Assembly: GCA_963806495.1 (NCBI GenBank)
Contig: CAWDYA010000011.1
Span: 435,801 to 499,800, forward strand
Source of the DNA: an uncultured Acidobacteriota bacterium
Lineage (GTDB): Bacteria; Acidobacteriota; Polarisedimenticolia; JACPZX01; DASXTC01
Reading direction: 5' to 3'
Length of the DNA stretch: 64,000 nt
The position numbers and the translations under genes were made by a program. Positions within the stretch are counted from its first letter, which is position 1, and each line of letters opens with the position of its first letter. This document shows, in pieces, positions 5,062-42,001 of the stretch. The notes below the pieces were generated by a model. It had not been told where the DNA came from. It worked only from the letters and a program-made list of their open reading frames with translations, and ran no database searches.

Positions 5062-5238
5062 CGACCGACCTCCTGGTGCGTCTTTGTGCGCGGGGCTTCC
5101 GGGTCCGGCGGCGTTGCCGGCTCGATCATCGTGCCATCCGACCGGCGAAAGTCAGGGTATGATATCAGTCGAGCGTGTCACGGTTGCCGGCGGATGCCCG
5201 CCCGCTACGCCCATTACGACTCTCGCACGAAAGGTTCC

Positions 5239-24758: not shown

Positions 24759-25290
24759 TTTCGGATACCTCCGCCGGCTCCAGACTCTGCAGGAAGCGCC
24801 GGGTGCCCTCGACGTCGAACCGGGAGTCGCTGGCCTCGATGCACAGGAAGAATCGATCGGTGCTGGCGAGCGCGAAGTCGGGAGCGTTGAACACGGGATG
24901 ATGCGGACGCGGCAGGCCGTTGAGCCCGAGCATCCCGAGGACCGCGGTCAGCGCCGCCGCCAGGACGCCCATCTCGAACGTGATGGGGATGAACGACGGC
25001 CAGCTGTGCAGAGGGCGGCCCCCGACGTTGACGGGATACGCCATCACCGAGACCCAGTACTGCAGGAGGTACCCGCCTGCGGCGCCCAGCAGGCCGCCCG
25101 CCAGCACCATCTTCGGCAGCCGGCCCCGCGTGTGCCAGCCGAGCGCCTCGGAGAGCTCCTCGATCGGAAAAGGCGTGTAGGCGTCCATGTTCCGGTAGCC
25201 CGCCTCGTACGCCCTGCGCGCCGCCGAGACGATGGCGGCCGTGTCGTGGAACTCGGCCATCAGCCCGTACGTCCTGCGCTCGGCGCTCAT
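24748..25290 (-). CDS. actD: Alternative complex III subunit ActD (DUF3341)
   Basis: MAEFHDTAAIVSAARRAYEAGYRNMDAYTPFPIEEL followed by two TM helices; operon position. Confidence 0.8.
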   Translation of the reverse strand: MSAERRTYGLMAEFHDTAAIVSAARRAYEAGYRNMDAYTPFPIEELSEALGWHTRGRLPKMVLAGGLLGAAGGYLLQYWVSVMAYPVNVGGRPLHSWPSFIPITFEMGVLAAALTAVLGMLGLNGLPRPHHPVFNAPDFALASTDRFFLCIEASDSRFDVEGTRRFLQSLEPAEVSEIER

Positions 25291-26702
25291 TTCCCGTCCT
25301 CCTCCGGCTCATGCACCTCGGCCGCGGGCAGGATCGTCCGCATCTCGAAGATCGAGATCATCGGCAGGAAGCGGATGAACAGGAACAGCAGCGCCATGAA
25401 CAGGCCGAGGGTGCCGAACAGCGTCGCGTAGTCCCAGAACGTGCCGTAGTACATCCCCCACGACGACGGGCAGATAGTCACGGTGCAGGCTGGTGACGAC
25501 GATGATGAACCGCTCCAGCCACATGCCGACGCTGACGATCAGCGCGATCACGAACAGCGTCACGGGGCTGTTCCTGCACGCGCTTGAACCAGAGCGGCTG
25601 GATGGCGACGATGTTGCAGAAGATGAGCGCCCAGTAGGCCGGCCAGTAGGGGCCGACCATGCCGGTTGTCCGACATGAACATCTCGAAGGTGTTGCCGCT
25701 GTACCAGGCGTAGAAGACCTCCGTCATGTAGCCGTAGGCCGACCATGAGACCGGTGGCGAGCATCACCTTGCCCATGTTCTCGAGATGCCGCATCGTGAT
25801 GAAGTCCTGCAGGCCGTAGACCGCCCGCAGCGGGATCGCGATGAGTCAGCACCATGGCGAACCCGGCGTAGATGGCGCCCGCCACGAAATAGGGCGGGAA
25901 GATCGTCGAGTGCCAGCCGGGGACGATCGACGATGGCGAAGTCCAAGCTCACCACCGAGTGCACCGAGAGCACGAGCGGCGTGGCGAGGCCGGCCAGCAG
26001 CAGGTAGGCCACCTCGTAGCGGTGCCAGTGCATCGCCGAGCCGCGCCATCCCATCGCCAGGATGCCGTACACCTTCCGCGGGAACCACCACGACGCGCGA
26101 TCCCTCAGGGTGGCGAGATCCGGGATCAGCCCGACGAACCAGAACATGAGCGACACGGTCGCATAGGTGGACACCGCGAAGACGTCCCAGACCAGCGGGC
26201 TGCGGAACTGCGGCCACACCCCCATGGTGTTCGGGATGGGCAGCAGCCAGTAGAACAGCCAGGGCCGCCCCATGTGCAGCAGAGGGAACAGCCCCGCGCA
26301 CGCCACGGCGAACAGGGTCATCGCCTCGGCGAACCGGTTGATCGAGGTGCGCCATTCCTGCCGCAGCAGCAGGAGTATGGCGGAGATCAGCGTGCCTGCG
26401 TGGCCGATACCGATCCACCAGACGAAGTTGATGATCGCGAATCCCCAGCCGACGGGGATGTTGATGCCCCAGATGCCGACCCCCTTGACCATGAGCAGGG
26501 TCACGGCATAGAGCAGGATCATGACGAAGATGAAGGAGATCCCGAACCCCAGGAACCAGCCTTTTCGTGTCTTCTGCGTGAGGACGATGGAGGAGATCTT
26601 GTTGGTGACCGAGCCGAAGGTGTGATCGCGGCCGGTCAGGATCGCACGGTGCGCGGCCCGGGGCCCTCCAGCGTCATTCGGCTGCGTGATCTCCGGCGGC
26701 AT
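25287..26702 (-). pseudogene. actC: Alternative complex III subunit ActC (NrfD-like quinol-interacting membrane subunit); six +1 frame disruptions as assembled
   Basis: Homology is continuous only if one base is removed near each of 25928, 25845, 25739, 25662, 25577 and 25468. Examples: ...SLDFAIV|[26 protein letters not shown]|[35 protein letters not shown]|[25 protein letters not shown]|MVGPYWPAYWALIFCNIVAIQPLWFKRV|RNSPVTLFVIALIVSVGMWLERFIIVVTSLHRDYLP|SSWGMYYGTFWDY. Confidence 0.85.
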
Positions 26703-26705
26703 CGC

Positions 26706-29717
<3,012 letters not shown>

Positions 29718-30382: not shown

Positions 30383-30485
30383 CTTTTTCTCTCAGTTTCG
30401 CTCAATCTCTGTATGCGGGAGGGCGTCATGATAGCATCCCTCCGAAGTCATGTGGAGTACGGCGGGGATACACCACGTCGACGTA

Positions 30486-30500
30486 TGTGACTCCGTCACA
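30486..30500. promoter_or_regulatory. Perfect palindrome TGTGAC-N3-GTCACA in the actA / nitrilase divergent intergenic region (candidate operator)
   Basis: tgtgactccgtcaca lies 16 nt upstream of ATG 30516 and ~105 nt upstream of the actA start. Confidence 0.3.
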
Positions 30501-30515
30501 CGAAAAGGGCCCCTC

Positions 30516-31341
30516 ATGAAGATCGCTCTCGCGCAGAACAATGCCGGCGTCGATCGCCGCGCGAACCTGGAACGGGCTCTGCATACGATGGAGCGCGCCG
30601 CGGCGGCGGGCGCGGCGCTGATCGTCTTCCCGGAACTGGCCGTGGACCGGTTCTTCCCCGCATCGGAGTCGAACGAAGCGGCCCGTGATCTCGCCGAGCC
30701 GGTGCCGGGGCCGACCGCCGACGCGGTGGCCGACGCGGCCCGGAGGCTGTCGCTCGTCACCGTCTTCAACATGTACGAGAGGGACGCCGGCGGGCGGTGC
30801 TACGACTCGTCTCCGGTCTTCGACGCCGACGGCAGCCTGCTCGGCGTGACGCGGATGGTGCACATCGCCGACTTCGAGGGATTCCGCGAGAAGGCCTACT
30901 ACCACCCGGGCGATCGCGGGGCCCCCGTGTACGACACCCGGGCCGGACGTGTCGGTGTGGCGATCTGCTACGACCGGCACTACCCGGAGTACATGCGCGC
31001 TCTCGGCGTGCGCGGCGCGCAGATCGTCGCGATACCGCAGGCGGGAGCCCTCGACGAGTGGCCCGAGGGACTCTACGAGGCGGAGGTTCGCGCCGCCGCG
31101 TTCCAGAACGGGTACTATGCCGCGCTGGCCAACCGCGTCGGCGAGGAAGGAAGGCTCACCTTCGCCGGCGAGTCGTTCGTCGTGGATCCATCGGGTCAGG
31201 TGGTCGCCCGCGGGCGGCGTCTCGAGGAGGATTCTCGTGTTTGCCGACGTGGACCCGCGGCTCTGCGAGGCGTCACCGGCCCGCCGGCTTTTCTGGCGCG
31301 ACCGCCGGCCGGAGCTGTACCCGGGCTGGCTGGGCGAGTGA
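30516..31341 (+). pseudogene. Carbon-nitrogen hydrolase (nitrilase superfamily); one +1 frame disruption as assembled
   Basis: MKIALAQNN..., FPEL (catalytic Glu), VGVAICYD (Cys). After ~31230 the conserved C-terminus (LVFADVDPRLCEASPARRLFWRDRRPELYPGWLGE) is in another frame. Span 826 = 3n+1. Confidence 0.8.
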
Positions 31342-31429
31342 GCACCGACAAGGGCGACGACCCGGACAGGCCATAGATCCGGACAGGCCGCGCCGGAGCG
31401 AATATCAAGGACGATTCTGACATTTGTCA

Positions 31430-31458
31430 TTGATGTCCGCACCCGGGCGGACTATATT
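31430..31458 (+). promoter_or_regulatory. Candidate sigma70-type promoter (TTGATG-17 nt-TATATT) flanked by inverted repeat TGACA-TT-TGTCA (31418-31429)
   Basis: Locally AT-richer stretch ~125 nt upstream of the first gene of the cytochrome cluster. Motif match by eye only. Confidence 0.3.
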
Positions 31459-31582
31459 GCGGCATTGTTCGCCCCGCACGGCGAAGGGTCTCCGGCGGCC
31501 AGAGTTCCCCCCGCGCGCCCCGCGAGATCCCCACTTCAGAGCATTCGAAGACCTGACCACGGCTCCCGCTGGAGGACGAACC

Positions 31583-32509
31583 GTGATCGAAGCCGCGCGC
31601 CCCCACACCGCACGCAGCACGGCCTCCGTGTCTTCGGCGGCGCCCCGGCCGGGCGCGATCCTGAAGCCCGGCCCCGCCATGGTTGCCTGCTTCGTCCTGC
31701 TGGCCGCCGTCAACGTCATCGGCCTTCCTTATTACACGGCATCGCTCGGCGAGAGGATCCGGCATCCGCTGCACCCCTGGCTCAAGCCCTCGGGCCTCGT
31801 CGGCCAGAGTCTCGGCATGCTCGCCGTGGTGCTGTTTCTCTTCCTCTGGCTCTATCCGCTCAGAAAGAAGCTCGGTGCCCGCGCCGCCTTCACCGGCCGC
31901 GTACCCGCGTGGCTCGACTGGCACATCGCCGCGGGTCTGCTCGCGCCCTGGGCCGCGGCGACCCACGCGGGATGGCGGTTCACCGGGCTGATCGGTCTCG
32001 GCTACGCCGCCATGTTCATCGTGTATCTCAGCGGCATCGTCGGGAGATACATCTATACGCGGATCCCCCGGCGGCGTGACGGACTCGAGCTGAATCGCGA
32101 CGAGATGGCCGCCGAGCGCGAGAAGCTGCTGTTCGAGCTGACGGCGCGCACCGGTTTGCCGCCCGACGAGGTGCGAGGCGTGCTGGCGCGCGACGTGGAA
32201 GGGTGCGAGGGACTGTCTCCGCTCTCGACCATCCGTCGCATGGTGAGCGACGACTTCGCGCGGCGCCGATCGGCACGCGCGCTGGCGCGCCGGATGCCGC
32301 GCTCGGCCGGCGGGCGCTCCCTGACCCAGGTGCTCAGGCTCGCGCGCCGCGAGATGGCGCTGTCCCAGCAGGCCCGGATGCTCGACGCGACACAGCGTCT
32401 TTTCAAGTACTGGCACATCGCCCACCGCCCGTTCGCCGTGACGGCCCTGATCGCCGTGCTGGCGCACATCATCGTGGCGATCCTGATGGGCGCCACCTGG
32501 TTCCTGTGA
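31583..32509 (+). CDS. Polytopic His-rich inner-membrane protein (hypothetical; possible b-heme/ferric-reductase-like electron carrier)
   Basis: GTG start 6 nt after GGAGGA. About 5 TM segments with conserved-looking His in or near the membrane (WHIAAG, ATHAGW, YWHIAHRPF, VLAHII) and a long Arg-rich cytoplasmic loop. Confidence 0.6.
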   Translation: MIEAARPHTARSTASVSSAAPRPGAILKPGPAMVACFVLLAAVNVIGLPYYTASLGERIRHPLHPWLKPSGLVGQSLGMLAVVLFLFLWLYPLRKKLGARAAFTGRVPAWLDWHIAAGLLAPWAAATHAGWRFTGLIGLGYAAMFIVYLSGIVGRYIYTRIPRRRDGLELNRDEMAAEREKLLFELTARTGLPPDEVRGVLARDVEGCEGLSPLSTIRRMVSDDFARRRSARALARRMPRSAGGRSLTQVLRLARREMALSQQARMLDATQRLFKYWHIAHRPFAVTALIAVLAHIIVAILMGATWFL

Positions 32510-32522
32510 AGGCCCACCCAAG

Positions 32523-33988
32523 ATGACGATGTTGCTGACGACCCTCGGGCTGGTGCTGGTGACGGCGCTGTCAATCCACTTCCATCTGCGGCGAACCTCG
32601 CCTCGTGTCGGCAACACCCCCGCCCGGCCCTCGGGAGAGCCCTGCCCTCGCTGCCGCGCGCTCGTGCCGGCCGGCGCCCCCGTCTGCCCCTCGTGCCGCG
32701 TGCCGCTGCGCGCCTACGACGTCGTGACCGCCGAAGTGTCCGCGGACGCGGGCGATGGTGACGCCGGGGGCGGACGTCTTCACGCGATCGTGCGCGCCGA
32801 CATCTGCGTCGGGTGCGGCACCTGCGTCGAGGCCTGCCCGGAAGCAGGGGCGATACGATTGGAAGGCAAGCGCGCGATCATCGACACCGGAGCCTGCGTC
32901 GGCCACGGGCGGTGCGTGGAGGCCTGCCCGGTGGGCGGGATCCTCATGACGACCGGTGACGCCGTGCAGCGCGTCGAGGTGCCGGGTGTCGACGCGAACT
33001 TCCAGACGAACATCGAGGGGCTCTACATCGTCGGCGAGCTCGGCGGGCGCGGCCTCATCAAGAACGCGGTCAACGAGGAAAGATCGCCGTCGAGCACGTC
33101 GCCCGCCGCACGAACGCCGGCAACGGCCGGCCGGACCCCGTGCCCGGCACCCTCGACGTGGCGATCGTGGGCTCGGGGCCGGCCGGGCTGTCGGCCGGGC
33201 TGGAGGCGCAGCGCCTGGGGCTTTCGTACGTGGTGCTGGAGCGCGGCACCCTGGCCGACTCGATCCGCAAGTATCCCCGCCACAAGCTGCTGCTCGCCGA
33301 GCCGGTGAAGATGCCGCTGTACGGCGATCTCTGGATCGCCGACGCCTCGAAGGAATCGCTGCTCGCGGTCTGGGAGGCGATCGTCGCGCGCACGGGACTC
33401 GCCATCCAGACCGGTCAGGAGGTGAAGGCGATCGAGCCCACCTCGGGGCTGTTCCGGATCGCGACGCTCGACCGGACGTATCACGCCCGGCGCGTGGTGC
33501 TCGCGCTGGGTCGGCGCGGAACACCCCGCAGGCTCGGCGTCCCGGGCGAGGAGCTGGCCAAGGTCGTCTACGACATCGTCGAGATGGAGGTGTTCGCCGG
33601 CCGGCGCGTGCTCGTCGTGGGCGGCGGCGACAGCGCCGTGGAGTCGGCCGTGGGGCTGGGACGCCAGACCGGCACGCAGGTATCGCTGAGCTACAGGTCG
33701 GACAGCTTCAAGCGCGTCAAGTCCCGCAACCGCACCAAGCTCGACGAGTCGGTGGCCGCGGGCCGGGTCGGGCTGCTGCTCTCCAGCGAGGTGCGCGAGA
33801 TCCGCGCCGACTCCGTGCTGCTCGAGATGGAGGGCCGCACGCTGGAGCTTCCCAACGACGACGTGATCATCCGGATCGGCGGCGATCCTCCGTTCGAGTT
33901 CCTCAAGCGGCTCGGCGTTCAGATCGTGACGAAGAAAATCCGAATCACAGCGACGCAGAGCGAGGCCGGTGCCGGCGCGGCATCCTGA
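32523..33988 (+). pseudogene. TM-anchored zinc-ribbon / 2x[4Fe-4S] ferredoxin / FAD-NAD(P)-binding (thioredoxin-reductase-like) oxidoreductase; one -1 frame disruption as assembled
   Basis: N-terminal TM LLTTLGLVLVTALSI. CPRC...CPSC. CVGCGTCVEACP and CVGHGRCVEACP. After ~33078 the homology continues in another frame with DVAIVGSGPAGLSAG and VLVVGGGDSAVE Rossmann motifs. Span 1466 = 3n-1. Confidence 0.8.
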
Positions 33989-36014
33989 CGCGGGCCGCCC
34001 GCGCCGTGCCGGCCGTCTCGCGGCGCTCGCCGCTGCGGCGGCGACGCTGCTGCCGGCGCTGTCCGCGCCGGCCCGCGCGCAGGTCTCCCCCGGCCCGCTC
34101 GCGCGCCCCCACGCCTCCATCGACAGCACGCTGAAGTGCTTCTCGTGTCACGGCTCGTCGAAGGAGTCGATGGACGACAAGTGTCTCGCCTGCCACGAGG
34201 ACATCGGCTGGCTGCGCGACCGTCATCGCGGGTTCCACGGGCAGGCGGGTCTGCCCGCCTGCAGCTCCTGCCACCCGGATCACGGCGGGCGCGACTTCGA
34301 GCTGATCCAGTGGAAGGAGGGCGCACCGGAGAAGTTCGACCACGTGCGCAGCGGCTGGCCACTGAAGGGACGCCACGCCGAGCTGCGGTGCGCGAGCTGC
34401 CACCAGGCGAAGTTCCAGCTCTCCGCCGCGGCGAAGCTCGGCCGCCATGATCCGGGATCACAACGCTGGACCGGACTCGAGACGGCCTGCGCCTCGTGCC
34501 ACGAGGACGCGCACCGCGGCGCGCTCGGCCCGGACTGCGCTTCGTGCCACGGTCTGCAGCACTGGAAGCCGGCGGTCGGCTTCGATCACGCGAAGACCTC
34601 GTTCCCGCTGACCGGCAAGCATGCTCCCGTGGCATGCGCCGCCTGCCATCAGGCAAAACACCTGAAGCTGAAGCTCGACGGCGCCGGACGGCCGATCCCG
34701 TTGTACAAGCCGCTGCCGCACGCCGAGTGCAGCAGCTGCCACAAGGACGTGCACGACGCGCGTCTCGGCCCGGTGTGCAGCAAGTGCCACGGCACCGACG
34801 ACTTTCACCGGGTGGCGAAGGAGTCATTCGACCACGACAGGACCCGCTACCCCCTGCGCGGCGCGCACCGGGCGGTGAAGTGCGCGTCCTGCCACGAGGC
34901 GGCCGCGGCGAAGGGGCGCCAGCCCGCCTTCGCCCGGTGCGGCGACTGTCATGCCGACGCCCACGCGGGCAAGGCCACGCTCGCGGGCAAGGCCGTCGAC
35001 TGCGCCTCGTGCCACGAGGTGTCGGGATGGCGGACATCCACCTTCACCGTGGCGCAGCACGCATCGACACCCTATCCCCTCGTCGGGGCGCATGCGCGCG
35101 TCGCCTGCGCCTCCTGTCATGCCCGGAAGAAGGGAGCGGCGGGCCTGGGCTCCTCGGGCGTGGTGATCCGCGCGGCCCACGCCCTCTGCACCGATTGCCA
35201 CGCCGACGCGCACGCCGGACAGCTCGCGTCCGCAAAGGACGGCGGCGCCTGCGAGTCGTGTCACGCCGTCGCCGGATGGAAGCCGTCCACCTTCACGGCG
35301 GCACGGCACGACAAGCTGAAGTTCCCGCTGAAGGGACGCCATGCCGCGATCGACTGCGCCGCCTGCCACGGGCCGCTGCGGCCCGGGCTGCCGCCCGTCG
35401 CCCCGGCGAAACAGGTCGGCTCGGCGCGCGTGGAGCTGGCGCTGCGCGTCTCGGACTGCGCCGACTGTCATCGTGACCCTCACGCGGGACGGTTCGCGAA
35501 GAGCGCAACGTCACGCTGCGGCGACTGTCACACCTCGGCCGTTTCCTGGACCTCGACCATCGACGTGGAGGGGCATCGTCGCTTCCCGTTCCCGCTCGGC
35601 GGAGCACACCGGGCCGTCCCCTGCATCGCCTGCCACAAGGAGATGGAAGGGCCGCCGGGCGGCTCGACGCTGAAGCTGGCCTCGAACCCGGGCCGGCCGC
35701 TGCCATTCCGAGCCGGGCGCACCCGGTGCAGCGATTGCCACGAGGACCCGCACGGGGATCAGTTCGCGAAGCGCAAGGGCGGCGACACCTGCGACACGTG
35801 CCATGTCGACAACAGGTTCAAGCCGGCCGCCCTGTTCGACCACGAGCACGACACGGTCTTCCCGCTCAAGGGCGCCCACGCGCGCGTGACGTGCGGTGAA
35901 TGCCACAAGCCCCGCATCGACGAGAAGGGAGTGAGACGGGTCGTCTACCGTTCCGTTCCCACACGGTGTGAGGATTGCCACGCTGGCGGCAAGCAGGGAG
36001 GAGCATCACCATGA
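33969..36014 (+). CDS. Secreted multiheme cytochrome c, 23 CxxCH motifs (seven c7-like triheme modules)
   Basis: Signal peptide ...LLPALSAPARAQV. 23 CxxCH counted in the translation. Recurrent module FDHxxTxFPLxGxHxxxxCxxCH. Confidence 0.9.
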   Translation: MPARHPDAGRPRRAGRLAALAAAAATLLPALSAPARAQVSPGPLARPHASIDSTLKCFSCHGSSKESMDDKCLACHEDIGWLRDRHRGFHGQAGLPACSSCHPDHGGRDFELIQWKEGAPEKFDHVRSGWPLKGRHAELRCASCHQAKFQLSAAAKLGRHDPGSQRWTGLETACASCHEDAHRGALGPDCASCHGLQHWKPAVGFDHAKTSFPLTGKHAPVACAACHQAKHLKLKLDGAGRPIPLYKPLPHAECSSCHKDVHDARLGPVCSKCHGTDDFHRVAKESFDHDRTRYPLRGAHRAVKCASCHEAAAAKGRQPAFARCGDCHADAHAGKATLAGKAVDCASCHEVSGWRTSTFTVAQHASTPYPLVGAHARVACASCHARKKGAAGLGSSGVVIRAAHALCTDCHADAHAGQLASAKDGGACESCHAVAGWKPSTFTAARHDKLKFPLKGRHAAIDCAACHGPLRPGLPPVAPAKQVGSARVELALRVSDCADCHRDPHAGRFAKSATSRCGDCHTSAVSWTSTIDVEGHRRFPFPLGGAHRAVPCIACHKEMEGPPGGSTLKLASNPGRPLPFRAGRTRCSDCHEDPHGDQFAKRKGGDTCDTCHVDNRFKPAALFDHEHDTVFPLKGAHARVTCGECHKPRIDEKGVRRVVYRSVPTRCEDCHAGGKQGGASP

Positions 36015-37288
36015 AGCCCGCACGACTTCATCTCGGCCTCTTCGTCTTCGCTACGCTGGCCGCGGGCGCGGCGCCCGCGGCTGCGGCCGAGACGACATCG
36101 GAGAAGAACCCGCACGGCTCGTTCGTCGCCGACTGTTCGACCTGCCACCGGCCGGACGCCTGGAAGCCGGCCGTCATCTCGAGCGACTTCGACCACAGGA
36201 AGTACGGCTACACGCTGCAGGGGGCGCACGAGAAGCTCCCCTGCCGCACGTGCCACGCCTCGCTCGACTTCAAGCGGGCCGGGACGGCCTGTATCGACTG
36301 CCACCAGGACATCCACAACGGCGAGATGGGGATCGACTGCGATCGATGCCACACGCTGCGCAACTTCATCGAGCAGACGCAGCAGCGGCGCAACCACAGG
36401 CTGACCCGTTTCCCGCTCACCGGCGCCCACACGGCCGTGGACTGCGATTCGTGCCATCGTGCCGGCAGTACGGGGCAATTGAGCTTCGTCAACACGAATA
36501 CCGAGTGCGATTCGTGCCATCTGAATGACTACCTGGCCACCACCAACCCCGACCACACCGCCTCGGGGCTGCCGCGCGACTGCATCGAGTGCCACTCGGT
36601 CATAAGCTGGGCGGGCAGCCGGTTCAACCACTCCACGACCGGGTTCCCCCTGTCGGGCACGCACAAGAGCCTCGATTGCTCAGCCTGCCACACCGGCAAC
36701 CAGTTCACGGGGGCGTCTCCCGACTGCTGGTCGTGCCATCAGACCGACTTCGAGCAGACCACCAACCCGCCTCACCAGAGCCAGGGGTTCTCGCACGACT
36801 GCCAGTCCTGCCACAACACCAGCGCGTGGCAGCCCTCGACCTTCGATCACAACGCGACCGGATTCCCGCTGACCGGCGCGCACCGGGCCGCCGCCTGCAC
36901 CGACTGCCACACCGGCGGCACTTACGCCGGCACGCCCACAGCCTGTGTCTCCTGCCACCAGCAGGACTATGACGGCACCACGAACCCGGACCACCAGGCC
37001 GCCGGCTTCCCGACCGACTGCGCGAGCTGCCACGGGACCACGACCTGGAGCGGGGCGACCTTCGACCACGACTCGCTCTACTTCCCGATCTACAGCGGCG
37101 CGCACGCCGGCCGGTGGGCGTCCTGCGCCACCTGCCATATCAACCCGGCCAACTACGGCGACTTCACATGCCTTTCGTGTCACCCGCACGATGACAAGAA
37201 CTCGACCGACGGCCACCACAGCGGGGTCAACGGGTACATGTATGTCAGCTCGGCCTGCTACAGCTGTCATCCGAGGGGGAGGCACTGA
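36011..37288 (+). CDS. Secreted multiheme cytochrome c, 16 CxxCH motifs
   Basis: ATG 36011 overlaps the upstream stop (ATGA) and follows GGGAGGAG. Signal peptide MKPARLHLGLFVFATLAAGAAPAAAA. 16 CxxCH. Recurrent TTNPxH...DCxxCH module. Confidence 0.9.
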   Translation: MKPARLHLGLFVFATLAAGAAPAAAAETTSEKNPHGSFVADCSTCHRPDAWKPAVISSDFDHRKYGYTLQGAHEKLPCRTCHASLDFKRAGTACIDCHQDIHNGEMGIDCDRCHTLRNFIEQTQQRRNHRLTRFPLTGAHTAVDCDSCHRAGSTGQLSFVNTNTECDSCHLNDYLATTNPDHTASGLPRDCIECHSVISWAGSRFNHSTTGFPLSGTHKSLDCSACHTGNQFTGASPDCWSCHQTDFEQTTNPPHQSQGFSHDCQSCHNTSAWQPSTFDHNATGFPLTGAHRAAACTDCHTGGTYAGTPTACVSCHQQDYDGTTNPDHQAAGFPTDCASCHGTTTWSGATFDHDSLYFPIYSGAHAGRWASCATCHINPANYGDFTCLSCHPHDDKNSTDGHHSGVNGYMYVSSACYSCHPRGRH

Positions 37289-38904
37289 TGAACGCCATGC
37301 GCAAGCTGATCCCCTGGATACGGCCCGCGGCGCTCCTGCTCGCCATGATGCCCGGCATCGCCGACCTGCCCGCCGCGACGGAGCAGGCCGAGACCGGGCC
37401 GTACCGTGAGACCACCATCACCTATCTGTCCGGGGCATCGGTCTATCTCGGCTCGGGCAGTGACGCCGGAATGGCGATCGGCCAGCAGCTCGAGGTGGTG
37501 CGAGACGGCGCGGTGATCGGATGGCTGCGTGTCACCTACATCTCGGCCAGCCGGGCCCTGTGCGAGCGGATCAGCGGTGAGACGCCCCTCGCCACCGGTG
37601 ACACCGTCCGCTACATCCCGCAGGCGGCGCCCACGCCGGCCGCGGAGCCGGCCCAACGCAAGCCGGAGCCGCCCCGCGCGCGACGCGGGACCGGGCTGCA
37701 TGGCCGCGTCGGCGTCCGGTACCTCGTGGTGAGGGACAACGGCGTGGACGGCGCGGACGGCACCGACTTCTCACAGCCCGCGCTCGATCTGCGGCTCGAC
37801 GGCACGACGATGGGCGGGGCGCCGATCGACATGGACGTCGACGTCCGCTCCCGCCGCTCGTATCGCACGATGCCCGACGGCACGCGCGAGACCGACGGCT
37901 CGACGAGCATCTACCGGATGTCCGCCTCCTGGCACGACCCTGCCTCGCCATGGCGCGTCACCGCCGGGCGGCAGGTCTCGCCGTCTCTCGCGGCGATCAG
38001 CATCTTCGACGGCGTGGAGGCGTCGTACCGGGCGGCACGGTGGGGCGCAGGCGTCTTCAGCGGCACCCAGCCCGATCCGGTCGACCTCGGCTACTCCAAC
38101 ACGATCCGCGAGCACGGTGCCTATGTCGAGTGGCGTCAGGCGCCCGAGAGCGAGCGACGCTGGGGGATCACCACGGGGCTGATCGGCTCGTACGCGGAGG
38201 GCGAGATCAACCGCGAGTTCTCGTACATGCAGGGCTCGTACATGGGCAGGAGACTCTCCTTCTGGCTCGCCGAGGAGATCGACCTGAACCGCGGATGGAA
38301 GGAGCAGGCCGAGAACAGCTCCGTCTCGTTCACCAGCACGCTGGTGACGGTCGGCCTGCGCGCCACCGAGGGGCTCTCGTTCAACGCCGGCTACGACAAC
38401 CGGCGCAACGTGCGTCTCTACCGCGACCGGATCACGCCGGTCACCGAGTTCGACGATCAGTACCGCACGGGCGCCTGGGCGGGGGCGACGTGGCGGTTCG
38501 CCGACCACTACTCGATCGGCGTGGACGGCCGCACCAACACGGGCGGCTCCACCGGCGGCGCCGACGGTTACACGCTGCGTCTCGGGGCCGTGCGGCTGAC
38601 GCCCCTCGGGCTGGACTTCCGCTCGCGCAGCACCCGCTACACCAACGACACGGTGGAGGGATGGCTGCACTCGCTCGGGATCGGCCTGCCGCTGGGATCG
38701 CGCTGGCACATCGAGGTCAACGGCGGCGTGCGCGACGAGACGAACCTGATCGATCCCACGCTGGGCGGCACGCTGACCTGGTACGGCCTGGACATCGACG
38801 TGAACATCGCGCGGCGTTGGTACGCCATCCTGTCCGTGGAGACCGCCACCGGCGACATGGAGGCCACGGATCAGGCGTTCCTGAGCGTCTCGTGGCGGTT
38901 CTGA
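37288..38904 (+). CDS. Putative outer-membrane beta-barrel protein with ~100-aa N-terminal soluble domain
   Basis: TGATG overlap with the upstream cytochrome gene. Signal peptide MNAMRKLIPWIRPAALLLAMMPGIADLPAA. Alternating hydrophobic/polar pattern rich in Y/G/R/D. C-terminal FLSVSWRF (terminal aromatic, OMP signature). Confidence 0.7.
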   Translation: MNAMRKLIPWIRPAALLLAMMPGIADLPAATEQAETGPYRETTITYLSGASVYLGSGSDAGMAIGQQLEVVRDGAVIGWLRVTYISASRALCERISGETPLATGDTVRYIPQAAPTPAAEPAQRKPEPPRARRGTGLHGRVGVRYLVVRDNGVDGADGTDFSQPALDLRLDGTTMGGAPIDMDVDVRSRRSYRTMPDGTRETDGSTSIYRMSASWHDPASPWRVTAGRQVSPSLAAISIFDGVEASYRAARWGAGVFSGTQPDPVDLGYSNTIREHGAYVEWRQAPESERRWGITTGLIGSYAEGEINREFSYMQGSYMGRRLSFWLAEEIDLNRGWKEQAENSSVSFTSTLVTVGLRATEGLSFNAGYDNRRNVRLYRDRITPVTEFDDQYRTGAWAGATWRFADHYSIGVDGRTNTGGSTGGADGYTLRLGAVRLTPLGLDFRSRSTRYTNDTVEGWLHSLGIGLPLGSRWHIEVNGGVRDETNLIDPTLGGTLTWYGLDIDVNIARRWYAILSVETATGDMEATDQAFLSVSWRF

Positions 38905-39730: not shown

Positions 39731-42001
39731 TCAGTCCGGCAGCAGGTTGAGGCGTGACAGCAGCCGTGTCACCGCCTTGTACCAGTGGGTCCGGACGCGG
39801 TATCGCCCCTCGTCGACCCGCAGAACCCCCAGGTCGGACAGCCTGTCGAGATGGATCGAGCAGATCCGCTCCGTGTAGGCGGTCACCGCGACCGCCTCCT
39901 CGTGCGACAGGTTCTCGTGCGTCACGACCGCCGCGAGCACGAAAAGCCCTTCCTCGGGGATCCGCTCCAGTTGCTGTGTGCCGGGCGCGCGGAAGAGACG
40001 CACCCGCGCGCGCGTCTCCGAATCGGGGACGAGCGACCGGAGCCAGAAGTGCAGCGCGATGCGCGGATTGCCGTCGGCGTAGTCCCACAGGAGACGGCTG
40101 TACCCCTCTTCGGTGCGCAGGAACCGCGCCTCGGCCGAGACGCCCTCCATCCGGTCCACCACGAGATCCTCGAAGGTGAGATCCACCCCGCTCTCCGTCG
40201 TGCGCGTCCGGAGCAGAGCGCGGATCGCCTCCTCGCTCCAGGGCGTCAGCACCTGCTCATCCCGGAAGACGGCGAGATCCGGACGCACCGCCCTGAGATG
40301 CTCCCACGAGAAGGCGTTGAAGGCGCACAGCCAGAAGATCCGATCGCATGTCTCCTCCACGACCGAGACGAACCCCTCGAGCGCGTCGTACCCCCCGACG
40401 GCGGCCAGGAACAGGTTCTGCGCCGCATCCACCACCACGACCCGGCGGCTGTCGTCGCTACGGATCACCGGCTCGACGGCCTTTCGCAGGTCGGCGTCCC
40501 TCAGCAGCCTTTCCCGAAGCTCCAGCCGTTCCACGGGCAGGTCACCGGTCTGAACACGCCCCAGCCAGGAGGTCTTCCCCATGCCTGGCTCGCCGATCAC
40601 CACGAAGCTGCCGCCGCGGCTGCCGGAGCCCCATTCCTTCAGAGTGTTCGTGAGCCGGTCGAGACCCGGGAACCGGTCAACGACGAGCGGCCCCTCGGAG
40701 ATCGCCTTCTCGGAGAACGCCGCGACAAGAGACGCGGGCAGCAAATCAATCCGCCCTTCCGCGTACCCCTTCTGCTCGGCCTGCTTCTCCATCCGCCGGC
40801 GGAACACGAACGCGAGCGCCTTGCGTGTCTGGTCGAACGTCAGGGCGAAGTCGCGCGCCATGATCGCGCCGGCCCGGCCCGCAAGCCAGCCGAACGAGGC
40901 CGCTGCCACCAGCACGCCATACCAGTGGTCGCGCGAGCTCTTTACCATCTCGGCGAGCCTCCCTGAAGGCGCCGACCCCAGGTAGGCGTCCGCGACGATC
41001 TGCCGCCACCGGCTGAGGACCCGAAGGGCCGCGGCCAGCACCACGAGCCACGAGAAGTCCACGACGATGCCGTAGAGGAAACCGGTGCCGAGGAGCTGGC
41101 GGGAGAGCGCGAACAGGACGCCGAGCAGCGTCACGGTGCGGACGATGGTGCGCACGCTGCGGATGAGGAGCATCCGGCGCGCCGTATCCATCGCCAGGTG
41201 GTAGCGGCGGGCGACCCTCACGATCAGGGAAAAGGAGACATCGATGGCGAGCCGGTAGAAGACGTACAGCACCGCGAGCCGGTAGATGACGACGGCCTCC
41301 GGCAGGTCGCGTGCGCCGCCCAGGCCCCATTGCAGCAGCCACAGGGCGAACAGCCACGTCAGCCACGGGACGACCACCTCGACGATGCCGGACACGGCCT
41401 CGAGACGCCGCAGCCAGCGCGCGCTGTGGACCCGATCGAACGCGGCACGTTTCGTCGCGGCGAGAAGCTGCGGGCCCCGGCGCCGGACGATGAGCAGGAA
41501 CACCAGGATGAGCGCGATCTTCCCGAGCACGAGCGTGGCGCTGCCGAGCGCGAACATGTCACCCAGGATCGAGGGCAGCTGGTGAAGCGCCCGTGCCCTG
41601 CTCGCGCCCCACAGCCGCGCGGAGAGAACGAGCTGGCGGAACTCGCGCCTGAGCTGGGCAAACCCCTCGCGTGAGAACCCGAGGATCTGGCTCCGCTTGT
41701 CCGGTGTCAGCAGCGACAGCGCGCGGATTCTCAGGTTGGTGATCCGGCTCACGAGGTCGGCGTCGGTCTCGACTCCCATCCACAGCGAAGCCCGCCGGAT
41801 CCGCTCGAAATGATCGGTGGCCTCCTCGATCTCGGACTCCAGTCGCATCAGGGCCCGCGCCCGTTCCTCCAGGGGCGTTCCGAGCAGGGTCTCGGGCTGG
41901 AGGCTCGGGACGAAACGGGGTGCCGGGGGCGGCGACTTCCACTCGTCGAGCGCGGCCTCCAGAATCGTCCCGGGCCGATCCGACGAGGTCCCCGAGCTCA
42001 T
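39731..42001 (-). CDS. Polytopic membrane protein fused to cytoplasmic P-loop NTPase and C-terminal winged-helix-like region (hypothetical); probably extends upstream to ~42350 across a frameshift
   Basis: About 6 TM segments in the N-terminal half. Walker A VVIGEPGMGKTS and Walker B-like RRVVVVDAAQ. Ends 7 nt upstream of the MscS gene. See finding on 41985-42377. Confidence 0.7.
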   Translation of the reverse strand: MSSGTSSDRPGTILEAALDEWKSPPPAPRFVPSLQPETLLGTPLEERARALMRLESEIEEATDHFERIRRASLWMGVETDADLVSRITNLRIRALSLLTPDKRSQILGFSREGFAQLRREFRQLVLSARLWGASRARALHQLPSILGDMFALGSATLVLGKIALILVFLLIVRRRGPQLLAATKRAAFDRVHSARWLRRLEAVSGIVEVVVPWLTWLFALWLLQWGLGGARDLPEAVVIYRLAVLYVFYRLAIDVSFSLIVRVARRYHLAMDTARRMLLIRSVRTIVRTVTLLGVLFALSRQLLGTGFLYGIVVDFSWLVVLAAALRVLSRWRQIVADAYLGSAPSGRLAEMVKSSRDHWYGVLVAAASFGWLAGRAGAIMARDFALTFDQTRKALAFVFRRRMEKQAEQKGYAEGRIDLLPASLVAAFSEKAISEGPLVVDRFPGLDRLTNTLKEWGSGSRGGSFVVIGEPGMGKTSWLGRVQTGDLPVERLELRERLLRDADLRKAVEPVIRSDDSRRVVVVDAAQNLFLAAVGGYDALEGFVSVVEETCDRIFWLCAFNAFSWEHLRAVRPDLAVFRDEQVLTPWSEEAIRALLRTRTTESGVDLTFEDLVVDRMEGVSAEARFLRTEEGYSRLLWDYADGNPRIALHFWLRSLVPDSETRARVRLFRAPGTQQLERIPEEGLFVLAAVVTHENLSHEEAVAVTAYTERICSIHLDRLSDLGVLRVDEGRYRVRTHWYKAVTRLLSRLNLLPD

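Follow-up and report, generated by a model that had tools for sequence, protein, structure and literature searches.

The five genes that lie between 31.4 and 38.9 kb in a 64,000-nucleotide stretch of DNA from an uncultured Acidobacteriota bacterium (contig CAWDYA010000011.1 of assembly GCA_963806495.1, positions 435,801–499,800; the whole stretch is referred to here as the window) raise the question of whether one gene cluster could encode a complete path for electrons from the cytoplasm to the exterior of a diderm cell. The initial annotation described the cluster as an uncharacterised porin–cytochrome conduit of this kind, and that description is supported here as a hypothesis on function. 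The evidence leans modestly towards the five genes forming a single operon, the products of which would pass electrons from NAD(P)H through FAD and iron–sulfur (FeS) clusters to two b haems, onwards to a periplasm-spanning cytochrome and finally to a haem wire threaded through an outer-membrane barrel.

The window has a G+C content of ∼68%, so that long spurious open reading frames (ORFs) are frequent, and the cluster genes were singled out by their third-position G+C content (GC3). An ORF scan of the window marks five genes on the plus strand with GC3 values of 0.85–0.93 (Table 1), in agreement with the initial annotation, which also proves exact in its haem counts (23 CxxCH motifs in gene 3 and 16 in gene 4), in the length and C-terminal aromatic residue of the gene 5 product (which ends in ...SWRF) and in the gene junctions: a 13-nt gap (32510–32522), a 20-nt overlap (33969–33988), an ATGA overlap (36011–36014) and a TGATG overlap (37286–37290). 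The N-termini of the products of genes 3, 4 and 5, judged directly, resemble signal peptides, as had been proposed. A composition scan of the window gives no genomic-island signature at the cluster.

Table 1. Coordinates of the promoter-like region and of the five cluster genes in the window
Feature	Coordinates	Strand	Description
AT-rich promoter-like region	31405..31458	+	Upstream of gene 1; consensus scan and conservation in the relative L247
Gene 1	31583..32509	+	308 aa, putative di-haem b inner-membrane protein, five predicted transmembrane (TM) helices
Gene 2	32523..33988	+	TM anchor, Cys4 ribbon, two FeS clusters and permuted TrxR/YpdA-like flavoprotein; 488 aa once repaired
Gene 3	33969..36014	+	Predicted secreted 23-haem c-type cytochrome, 681 aa
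Gene 4	36011..37288	+	Predicted secreted 16-haem cytochrome, 425 aa
Gene 5	37288..38904	+	538-aa predicted outer-membrane protein with signal peptide, beta domain and barrel

The membrane protein and the flavoprotein

Gene 1 most likely starts at the GTG codon at 31583, which has a GGAGGA sequence 6 nt upstream and agrees with the 308-residue gene called in the source collection; this start replaces the one at 31418 given in the initial annotation. The N-terminal extension of the 361-residue ORF, the numbering of which is used below, is poorly conserved and consists mostly of gaps in the homologue alignment. To call the product His-rich was an overstatement, since the 361-residue ORF contains 10 histidines; what matters instead are four invariant transmembrane histidines. 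Five TM helices are predicted, with a cytoplasmic helical loop of ∼115 residues between TM4 and TM5. The residues that are invariant in two homologue sets (43 and 32 sequences) are W163-x3-H167-x13-H181 in TM3, S203-G-x-x-G207 in TM4 and W330-x3-H334-x13-H348 in TM5, and the same Trp/His/SGxxG pattern is kept in distant subfamilies. The distribution of positive charges along the sequence puts the TM2–TM3 and TM4–TM5 loops in the cytoplasm, so that TM3 and TM5 would run parallel and their histidine pairs would form one inner and one outer bis-His site. This geometry would be that of a classical transmembrane di-haem b carrier.

The AF2 model of gene 1 (pLDDT 86.7) contains five membrane helices and a helical cytoplasmic insert. 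Gene 1 has no Pfam (E ≤ 0.01) or NCBIfam match, a profile search against PDB sequences returned noise only, and a Foldseek search with the model gave no fold match (best E-value 0.9, to unrelated proteins). Assignment to the NOX/FRD family or to a cytochrome b fold was rejected on the lack of Pfam, PDB sequence and Foldseek matches, and only the analogy of the motifs was retained.

Gene 2, treated as a single gene in the initial annotation, is split in the window into two ORFs (32523–33308 and 33140–33988, with the frame change near 33075–33080), which had been joined silently. In two close relatives, with 92% and 80% identity in gene 1, the gene is intact and encodes 487 and 488 residues, and DNA alignment reveals a single-base deletion, both relatives having AACGAAGG[C/G]AAGATC where the window has AACG-AGGAAAGATC. 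Frame 0 encodes the TM anchor, the Cys4 ribbon and the FeS motifs and runs to '...GLYIVGELGGRGLIKNAVNE', and the other frame resumes with 'KIAVEHV...VAIVGSGPAG'. The ActC gene of the same window (25287–26702, minus strand) is broken likewise, into at least five frames within 1.4 kb, each piece still being ActC-like membrane sequence, and on this ground the frame breaks in both genes are considered more likely to be assembly indel errors than decay.

Pfam assigns to gene 2 the domains Fer4_10 (2×[4Fe-4S]; 8.6e-11) and Pyr_redox_3 (PF13738; 1e-45), the latter with 156.8 bits against a cut-off of 30, which establishes that the domain is present. Among NCBIfam models, the flavin part is nearest to YpdA and thioredoxin reductase (TrxR), under the equivalog cut-offs; the match to YpdA (TIGR04018; 5e-52) reaches 176.6 bits against a cut-off of 339.9, which rules out gene 2 as a YpdA equivalog. 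Both the GxGxxG and the GGGDSAxE motif are conserved. The flavin part contains no cysteine and is therefore not a disulfide reductase. The same lack of cysteine, together with the absence of conserved cysteines from gene 1, led to the rejection of a thiol-reducing role of the two proteins in cytochrome maturation.

Between the FeS domain and the first Rossmann motif lies a stretch that resembles the C-terminal FAD 'GD' segment of the TrxR/YpdA-like fold. When this stretch is moved in silico to the C-terminus, the YpdA match grows from profile positions 1–261 to 1–288 and from 172.7 to 191.8 bits, and the TrxR match from 2–246 to 2–296 of 300, which indicates that the gene 2 flavoprotein is circularly permuted; the permutation would place the 'GD' segment, and with it the flavin, beside the FeS domain. 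Of 32 homologues, 31 have CxxHxxCxxxCP as the second FeS motif (in the window at 32890–32930, residues ∼125–136), with a histidine in place of one cysteine ligand, which suggests that the second cluster is His-ligated or otherwise non-standard; it is perhaps the exit cluster towards gene 1. The positive residues that follow the N-terminal TM helix would place both the FeS and the flavin domains in the cytoplasm.

The multihaem cytochromes and the outer-membrane barrel

Both cytochromes appear to possess enough histidines for bis-His ligation of every haem, with 32 histidines outside the CxxCH motifs for the 23 haems of gene 3 and 21 for the 16 haems of gene 4, and methionine is nearly absent (only two residues in gene 3). 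Gene 3 has Pfam matches to Cytochrome_C7, Cytochrom_c3_2 and Cytochrom_CIII, and both genes score above the PF14522 cut-off of 24.8 bits (88.6 bits for gene 3; 68.2 bits, 5.5e-19, for gene 4), which places them in the c7/c3 class (PF14522, PF14537, PF02085). They are thus repeat polymers of this class and not orthologues of Hao, Nrf or Otr, in keeping with the initial annotation. The best curated match is to the DmsE/MtrA/MtoA decahaem family (TIGR03508, cut-off 192.2 bits), with 57.4 bits for gene 3, over residues 427–673 only, and 26.1 bits for gene 4. The C-terminal 250 residues of gene 3 thus weakly resemble this family, membership of which was rejected for both genes on these scores and on their 23 and 16 haems rather than ten.

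Gene 4 encodes a near-regular polymer of a ∼73-residue trihaem repeat with CxxCH spacings of 32, 16 and 25 residues, and a weak TIGR04257 match is also found in the c7-type cytochromes. The repeats are seen at the protein level only, no notable tandem repeats being present in the DNA of the cytochrome genes. The residue-to-haem ratios are 29.6 for gene 3 and 26.6 for gene 4. The sequence of gene 4 has no lipobox, nor any cysteine in the signal-peptide region.

The two cytochromes vary differently among homologues. In the window's own set the first has 23 haems in 35 of 44 cases and 20 in eight, and either 20 or 23 are found in other subfamilies. The second has from nine to 62 haems in the window's set, with 48 of 61 counts equal to 1 modulo 3 (mostly 3n + 1), and up to 76 in Bacteroidota. 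A fixed count in gene 3 and a count that varies by threes in gene 4 fit a span of fixed width, namely the periplasm, followed by a free end. Polymers of the c7 type extend by ∼1 nm per haem, which makes 20–23 haems equivalent to about one periplasm width. A similar argument has been made for the 21-haem cytochrome of the porin–cytochrome c complex PCC3 (PMC10734462). In four loci (L032, L042, L069 and L112) the two cytochromes apparently share one ORF with 41–64 haems, which may have been merged by ORF extension.

A gene of the gene 4 type always lies directly upstream of the barrel gene, even where a locus consists of just this pair, and in the window the two are translationally coupled through the TGATG overlap. 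On the basis of this constant position, the coupling, its standing as the only partner in the minimal loci and the analogy with mtrA–mtrB and mtoA–mtoB, gene 4 is taken to be the cytochrome that enters the gene 5 barrel.

The AF2 model of gene 5, calculated with 30 homologues (mean pLDDT 83.6), consists of an N-terminal beta domain (residues ∼40–109), a disordered linker and 22 long strands (residues ∼136–537; strand count from DSSP) before the final Phe. From general barrel geometry, the Cα diameter of a 22-strand barrel is estimated as ∼40 Å, which would be wide enough for a c7-type chain. A Foldseek search of the PDB finds generic large barrels, with the PapC usher pore ranked first (TMq 0.47) and AlgE, OccK-type channels and porins after it. 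Gene 5 has no Pfam or NCBIfam match (E ≤ 0.01), and its 30-homologue profile returned noise only from PDB sequences. A known barrel family was therefore rejected, and the view that the protein is neither a small nor a well characterised porin is borne out by the 22 strands and by the absence of hits to porin, TonB-receptor and MtrB models. Membership of the MtrB/PioB/MtoB family was likewise rejected (no match to TIGR03509; MtrB outside the top 50 Foldseek matches), as was a 26-strand barrel sheathing a decahaem cytochrome, gene 5 having 22 strands and its partner 16 haems. The 522 detectable homologues of gene 5 are all annotated as 'hypothetical', a few having a precomputed PF16538 match.

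Distribution, surroundings and related systems

A scan anchored on the barrel, with one genome per species, yielded at least 201 relatives, of which the 45 best loci with at least 8 kb of upstream sequence were judged. All five genes are present in 36 of these, the gene 4–gene 5 pair only in five, and gene 2 alone is missing from two. The hosts are metagenome-assembled genomes (MAGs) of Acidobacteriota, Gemmatimonadota, Eisenbacteria, Latescibacteria, Krumholzibacteriia, Binatia and Polarisedimenticolia. The co-conservation of the five genes that the initial annotation called for holds across many phyla. Several MAGs (L002, L007, L010, L020, L022, L052 and others) have a second, stand-alone pair of gene 4-like and gene 5-like genes in addition to a full five-gene locus, which suggests that such pairs could be interchangeable outer modules on one inner module.

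An exhaustive profile search places 3,028 clusters (50% identity, E ≤ 0.001) in the gene 1 family. A second subfamily with at least 564 relatives (Calditrichota, Ignavibacteria, Zixibacteria, Thermoanaerobaculia, KSB1 and others) has the order gene 1, 20-haem cytochrome, variable cytochrome, sometimes a 10-haem cytochrome, barrel and gene 2; all parts are present in 49 of its 80 best loci, and most of the others are truncated contigs. A Bacteroidota subfamily with at least 563 relatives keeps the gene order of the window, and gene 2 adjoins gene 1 in 79 of its 80 best loci. The gene 1–gene 2 pair persists in distant members. None of the best 80 loci of each genome scan is proteobacterial. Seventeen of the 80 Bacteroidota loci are headed by ccsA, which is absent from the window's subfamily, and a dedicated cytochrome-maturation gene was therefore rejected as a part of the system.

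The carriers number hundreds of mostly uncultured bacteria from soil, sludge and freshwater, and include the cultured Emticicia oligotrophica DSM 17448, Emticicia aquatica CECT 8858, Flectobacillus rivi and three Lacihabitans strains. In E. oligotrophica the whole cluster lies on plasmid pEMTOL02 (L081, record 78197–90781), where the annotation of its genes goes no further than hypothetical, NAD(P)-binding and cytochrome c3 family proteins; a 1028-residue ccsA (system II cytochrome c biogenesis) precedes it there, and a GW-dipeptide-domain protein is encoded after it. Emticicia was the only match in a tblastn search of plasmids.

Upstream of gene 1, a promoter-like TTGATG-17-TATATT site occupies 31430–31458 (two sites in the consensus scan against 0.5 expected), and a palindrome, TGACAtttGTCA, at 31419–31430 overlaps its −35 element. 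The AT-rich block is conserved in the 80%-identity relative L247 (∼5080–5140) despite a different upstream gene there, and it may be an operator. The different gene in L247 (2882–5032) encodes a TonB-dependent receptor, lies between the CN-hydrolase gene and gene 1 and is absent from the window; it is possibly an isolated hint of a link to iron uptake.

In the window the CN-hydrolase gene (30450–31376, plus strand) lies between the cluster and the genes of alternative complex III (ACIII), which are on the minus strand and hence separate from the cluster, as originally stated: ActA (a c7-type cytochrome), ActB (FeS), ActC (NrfD-like) and ActD, together with a cbb3-type cytochrome c domain protein. 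Adjacency to an ACIII-caa3 chain is real in the window but incidental, and a functional link was rejected, because ActB is missing from all 240 related loci. The CN-hydrolase was rejected as a sixth member, since it is not conserved beside the cluster and has one weak match elsewhere. Downstream, the minus strand encodes an MscS-type channel, a 756-residue protein without a family, an enoyl-CoA hydratase and AtuA. No neighbouring gene travels with the cluster in the related loci examined. The 756-residue ORF (39731–42001), which adjoins the channel gene and lies outside the cluster, has no Pfam or NCBIfam match and has a conserved 782-residue counterpart in the closest relative (L246, 3719–6067). 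The top identity of ActB (26706–29717) among species-representative genomes is 56%, to Terriglobales MAGs.

Literature searches, the coverage of which was incomplete, found no description of the exact five-gene set, and the two nearest systems, PCC3 and PCC4/Ptd, were compared through their published descriptions. PCC3 is predicted for Sideroxydans, Leptothrix and other Proteobacteria (PMC5566968; PMC10734462). Apart from gene 2, its gene order is the reverse of that in the window, namely a porin, a variable many-haem 'extracellular' cytochrome, a near-constant 'periplasmic' cytochrome and an inner-membrane protein of ∼300 residues, which has five TM helices with Wx3Hx13H on TM3 and TM5 and SGxxG on TM4, all features that are found in gene 1. 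The cytochromes of PCC3 are also rich in repeats, with 22–39 residues per haem, a range that includes both values found here. However, PCC3 has no flavoprotein/FeS gene, whereas here gene 2 sits between the membrane protein and the cytochromes; its periplasmic cytochrome has 21, 24 or 27 haems rather than 20 or 23, its porins are predicted to have up to 42 membrane strands rather than 22, and its hosts are Proteobacteria.

PCC4/Ptd, which is also a predicted system, shares the cytoplasm-to-surface logic and comprises an FAD/NAD(P) oxidoreductase, a 2×[4Fe-4S] protein, a ferric-reductase-like membrane protein, a porin and cytochromes with four, five and ten haems (10.1101/2023.11.21.568154). 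The flavoprotein and FeS protein are separate genes there, whereas they are fused, permuted and membrane-anchored here, and long polymers are lacking, in contrast to the 23 and 16 haems of the window. The hosts of PCC4/Ptd are Alpha-, Zeta- and Gammaproteobacteria and Planctomycetes (He et al., 2017; 10.1101/2023.11.21.568154). From these comparisons, the window's family is best described as PCC3-like wires joined to a fused version of a PCC4/Ptd-like input. The initial annotation held that the cluster matches neither textbook system; this stands for the haem counts, but the flavoprotein input and the His-motif membrane protein have precedents in the predicted PCC3, PCC4 and Ptd systems.

Resemblance to the characterised systems is looser. 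MtrCAB, MtoAB and PioAB, which belong to Shewanella and Fe(II) oxidisers and of which MtrCAB has a solved structure, share with the cluster a large barrel gene preceded directly by a cytochrome gene, the concept of a barrel-insulated haem wire and the weak likeness of the gene 3 C-terminal part to DmsE/MtrA. The MtrB barrel has 26 strands compared with 22 here, the MtrCAB cytochromes have ten haems each compared with 23 and 16, the cluster contains no lipoprotein cytochrome, and gene 5 matches neither the MtrB/PioB model nor the MtrB sequence. In the Mtr system electrons arrive from quinol via CymA, whereas a flavoprotein and a b-haem protein are proposed here. The Geobacter Pcc systems and GSU1996 have in common with the cluster the porin–cytochrome logic and the trihaem c7-type block arranged head to tail (PF14522; weakly TIGR04257). 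OmaB has eight haems and OmcB, a lipoprotein, has 12; the Pcc haem pattern was rejected for the cluster, which has 23 and 16 CxxCH motifs and a gene 4 signal-peptide region without cysteine. The Pcc clusters also lack inner-membrane and flavoprotein genes. The EET1–4 clusters of Acidobacteriota and Verrucomicrobiota (2026 peat preprint), with cytochromes of 8–13 haems, were set aside as different systems.

The order of carriers proposed below, in which NAD(P)H would reduce a flavin and the electrons would then cross two stacked b haems towards an acceptor beyond the membrane, recalls NOX/FRE/FRO and MsrQ with Fre, and gene 1 has the paired-His arrangement of the ferric-reductase superfamily, Hx13H on two TM helices (H167/H181 and H334/H348). 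Gene 1 nevertheless has no domain or fold match to that superfamily (PF01794; NOX, FRE, STEAP, MsrQ), and NOX/FRE/FRO proteins have six TM helices rather than five and an FNR-like domain rather than a separate TrxR-like FeS flavoprotein.

Among the Bacteroidota loci are those of Saprospiraceae MAGs with gene 4 homologues of up to 76 haems. A 2024 study reported giant cytochromes from Saprospiraceae as 'undescribed' (PMC11495043), and the gene 4 homologues of the Saprospiraceae MAGs may be these proteins.

A proposed electron path and its alternatives

In the proposed mechanism, gene 2, anchored to the cytoplasmic face of the inner membrane, would oxidise NAD(P)H at its FAD and pass the electrons through its two FeS clusters to gene 1, which would move them across the membrane on two b haems located between TM3 and TM5, where H167 and H334 would bind the inner haem and H181 and H348 the outer, with one histidine from each helix. 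The 23-haem cytochrome of gene 3 would then bridge the periplasm, and gene 4, sitting in or through the gene 5 barrel, would reach an external acceptor such as Fe(III), Mn(IV), humics or O2. Such a path would bypass the quinone pool. The steady pairing of the cytoplasm-facing gene 2 with a gene 1 that has both an inner and an outer bis-His site suggests an input from NAD(P)H to haem b. The compartment logic of the initial annotation is likewise supported by the four-His, two-helix di-haem b signature of gene 1 and by the retention of its pairing with gene 2 in distant subfamilies. Outward flow is favoured on established bioenergetics, because inward reduction of NAD(P)+ from bis-His c haems would be uphill against both the redox and the membrane potential, and there is no sign of a coupling device.

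Several points weigh against this mechanism. Electron export without proton co-transport dissipates the membrane potential, and several hosts belong to genera of aerobes (Emticicia, Flectobacillus). Neither in sequence nor in fold does gene 1 detectably resemble a ferric-reductase/NOX domain or any solved cytochrome b, and the support for its binding haem consists of motifs. Gene 2 is frameshifted in the window. Gene 4 lacks a lipobox, and no evident secretion pathway would carry it to the surface. Some genomes split genes 1 and 2 from genes 3–5, and two loci have no gene 2 nearby. The analogous membrane protein of PCC3/PCC4 was proposed by He et al. to be quinone-linked (PMC5566968). Gene content, co-conservation, sequence motifs, domain families and predicted folds are observed here; from them we infer which cofactors gene 1 would bind, which proteins would be in contact, where gene 4 would be located, which way the electrons would flow and what would accept them. 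Given the cost of electron export to the membrane potential, the system may not serve classical energy-conserving respiration but may instead balance the redox state of the cell, reach distant acceptors when O2 is limiting, mobilise iron by reduction or reduce O2.

Electrons could instead be taken up from Fe(II), Mn(II) or a cathode and run from genes 5, 4 and 3 through gene 1 to the quinone pool, with gene 2 as an accessory or as a branch to NAD(P)+. The motif set of gene 1 is that of the PCC3/PCC4 inner-membrane protein, which was first found in Fe(II) oxidisers (PMC5566968), the PCC3 membrane-protein gene is upregulated in iron-oxidising Sideroxydans CL21 (10.1101/2025.02.27.639646), and in the window an aerobic chain adjoins the cluster. 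This adjacency is not conserved, however, in any of the 240 loci, and the tight linkage of genes 1 and 2 indicates a cytoplasmic nucleotide partner. The reduction of NAD(P)+ would be strongly uphill, as noted, and all of the haems are apparently bis-His and thus of a type that is typically of low potential. Acidobacteriota, Gemmatimonadota, Bacteroidota and Ignavibacteria are also not known to us as iron oxidisers. Uptake is accordingly regarded as unlikely. An outward conduit fed by quinol through gene 1, in the manner of CymA, ImcH or CbcL, with gene 2 as a conditional second input or as a redox-sensing or maintenance partner, would conform to every characterised diderm pathway of extracellular electron transfer that we know of, all of which draw their electrons from quinol. 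It would also account for the two loci and at least one genome in which genes 1, 3, 4 and 5 occur without an adjacent gene 2 or are spread over separate contigs, and for the differing position and orientation of gene 2 between subfamilies. A di-haem arrangement that spans the membrane would, however, be superfluous in a quinol oxidase acting on the periplasmic side, the great majority of loci in three subfamilies include gene 2, and no quinone-site motif turned up, no search having been aimed at one; a quinol feed is therefore held to have a low probability.

Two further readings concern the barrel and the state of the cluster, and both are considered quite improbable. The barrel might act mainly as an usher-like pore for the export or anchoring of a surface cytochrome polymer, or the set as a whole might be an electron store or a reducer of O2 or reactive oxygen species. 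The closest structure to the barrel is indeed the PapC translocation pore, and in gene 5 a flexible linker sets the N-terminal beta domain apart; the similarity to PapC is low, however, many unrelated barrels score alike, which suggests a generic resemblance, and the cluster contains neither a chaperone nor another usher-pathway gene. Export and conduction are, moreover, compatible. A store or a reducer would suit the aerobic habit of some host genera and the gene 4 homologues with 60–76 haems. Saprospiraceae cytochromes with more than 100 haems have been proposed to be 'capacitors' (PMC11495043), which lends further support to storage. Finally, the cluster could be inactive in the source organism, with gene 2 a true pseudogene, as the one-base deletion relative to close relatives would imply. 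The similar breakage of ActC points rather to assembly indel errors; a high GC3 and conserved residues are retained in both halves of gene 2, and relatives at 80–92% identity have the gene intact.

The outward, NAD(P)H-fed path thus remains the preferred reading, and a broader form of it can be put forward tentatively, with rather more doubt than conviction: the family could constitute a quinone-independent, NAD(P)H-fed exporter across the whole envelope, a diderm counterpart of the eukaryotic NOX/FRO ferric reductases built from unrelated parts and present in hundreds to thousands of species. Its parts, for which the joint claim is equally tentative, would be a permuted FeS flavoprotein, a new di-haem b fold, a periplasmic 20/23-haem 'ruler' of fixed length, a wire that grows in trihaem steps to more than 70 haems and a new 22-strand barrel. 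Its hosts, again taken together and with the same reserve, would be Bacteroidota, Acidobacteriota, Gemmatimonadota, Ignavibacteria, Calditrichota and Zixibacteria, including aerobic heterotrophs.

The interest of the system lies in its very wide distribution, which takes in dominant and poorly understood phyla of soil and wastewater, in its apparent bypass of the quinone pool, in its two proteins without a known fold family and in its cultured hosts, through which the hypothesis of electron export is directly testable. It would also give a genomic context to the giant Saprospiraceae cytochromes (PMC11495043). If the input from flavoprotein to b haem is true, it would represent a different wiring of metabolism to the cell exterior, with a bearing on iron, manganese and humic cycling, on redox balancing in flocs and biofilms and on bioelectrochemistry. 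To our knowledge, extracellular electron transfer is mechanistically understood only in a few Proteobacteria and Desulfuromonadia, where it always starts from quinol; a quinone-independent exporter, if true, would add a major route, so far unrecognised, to the extracellular electron transfer of soil, sludge and freshwater.

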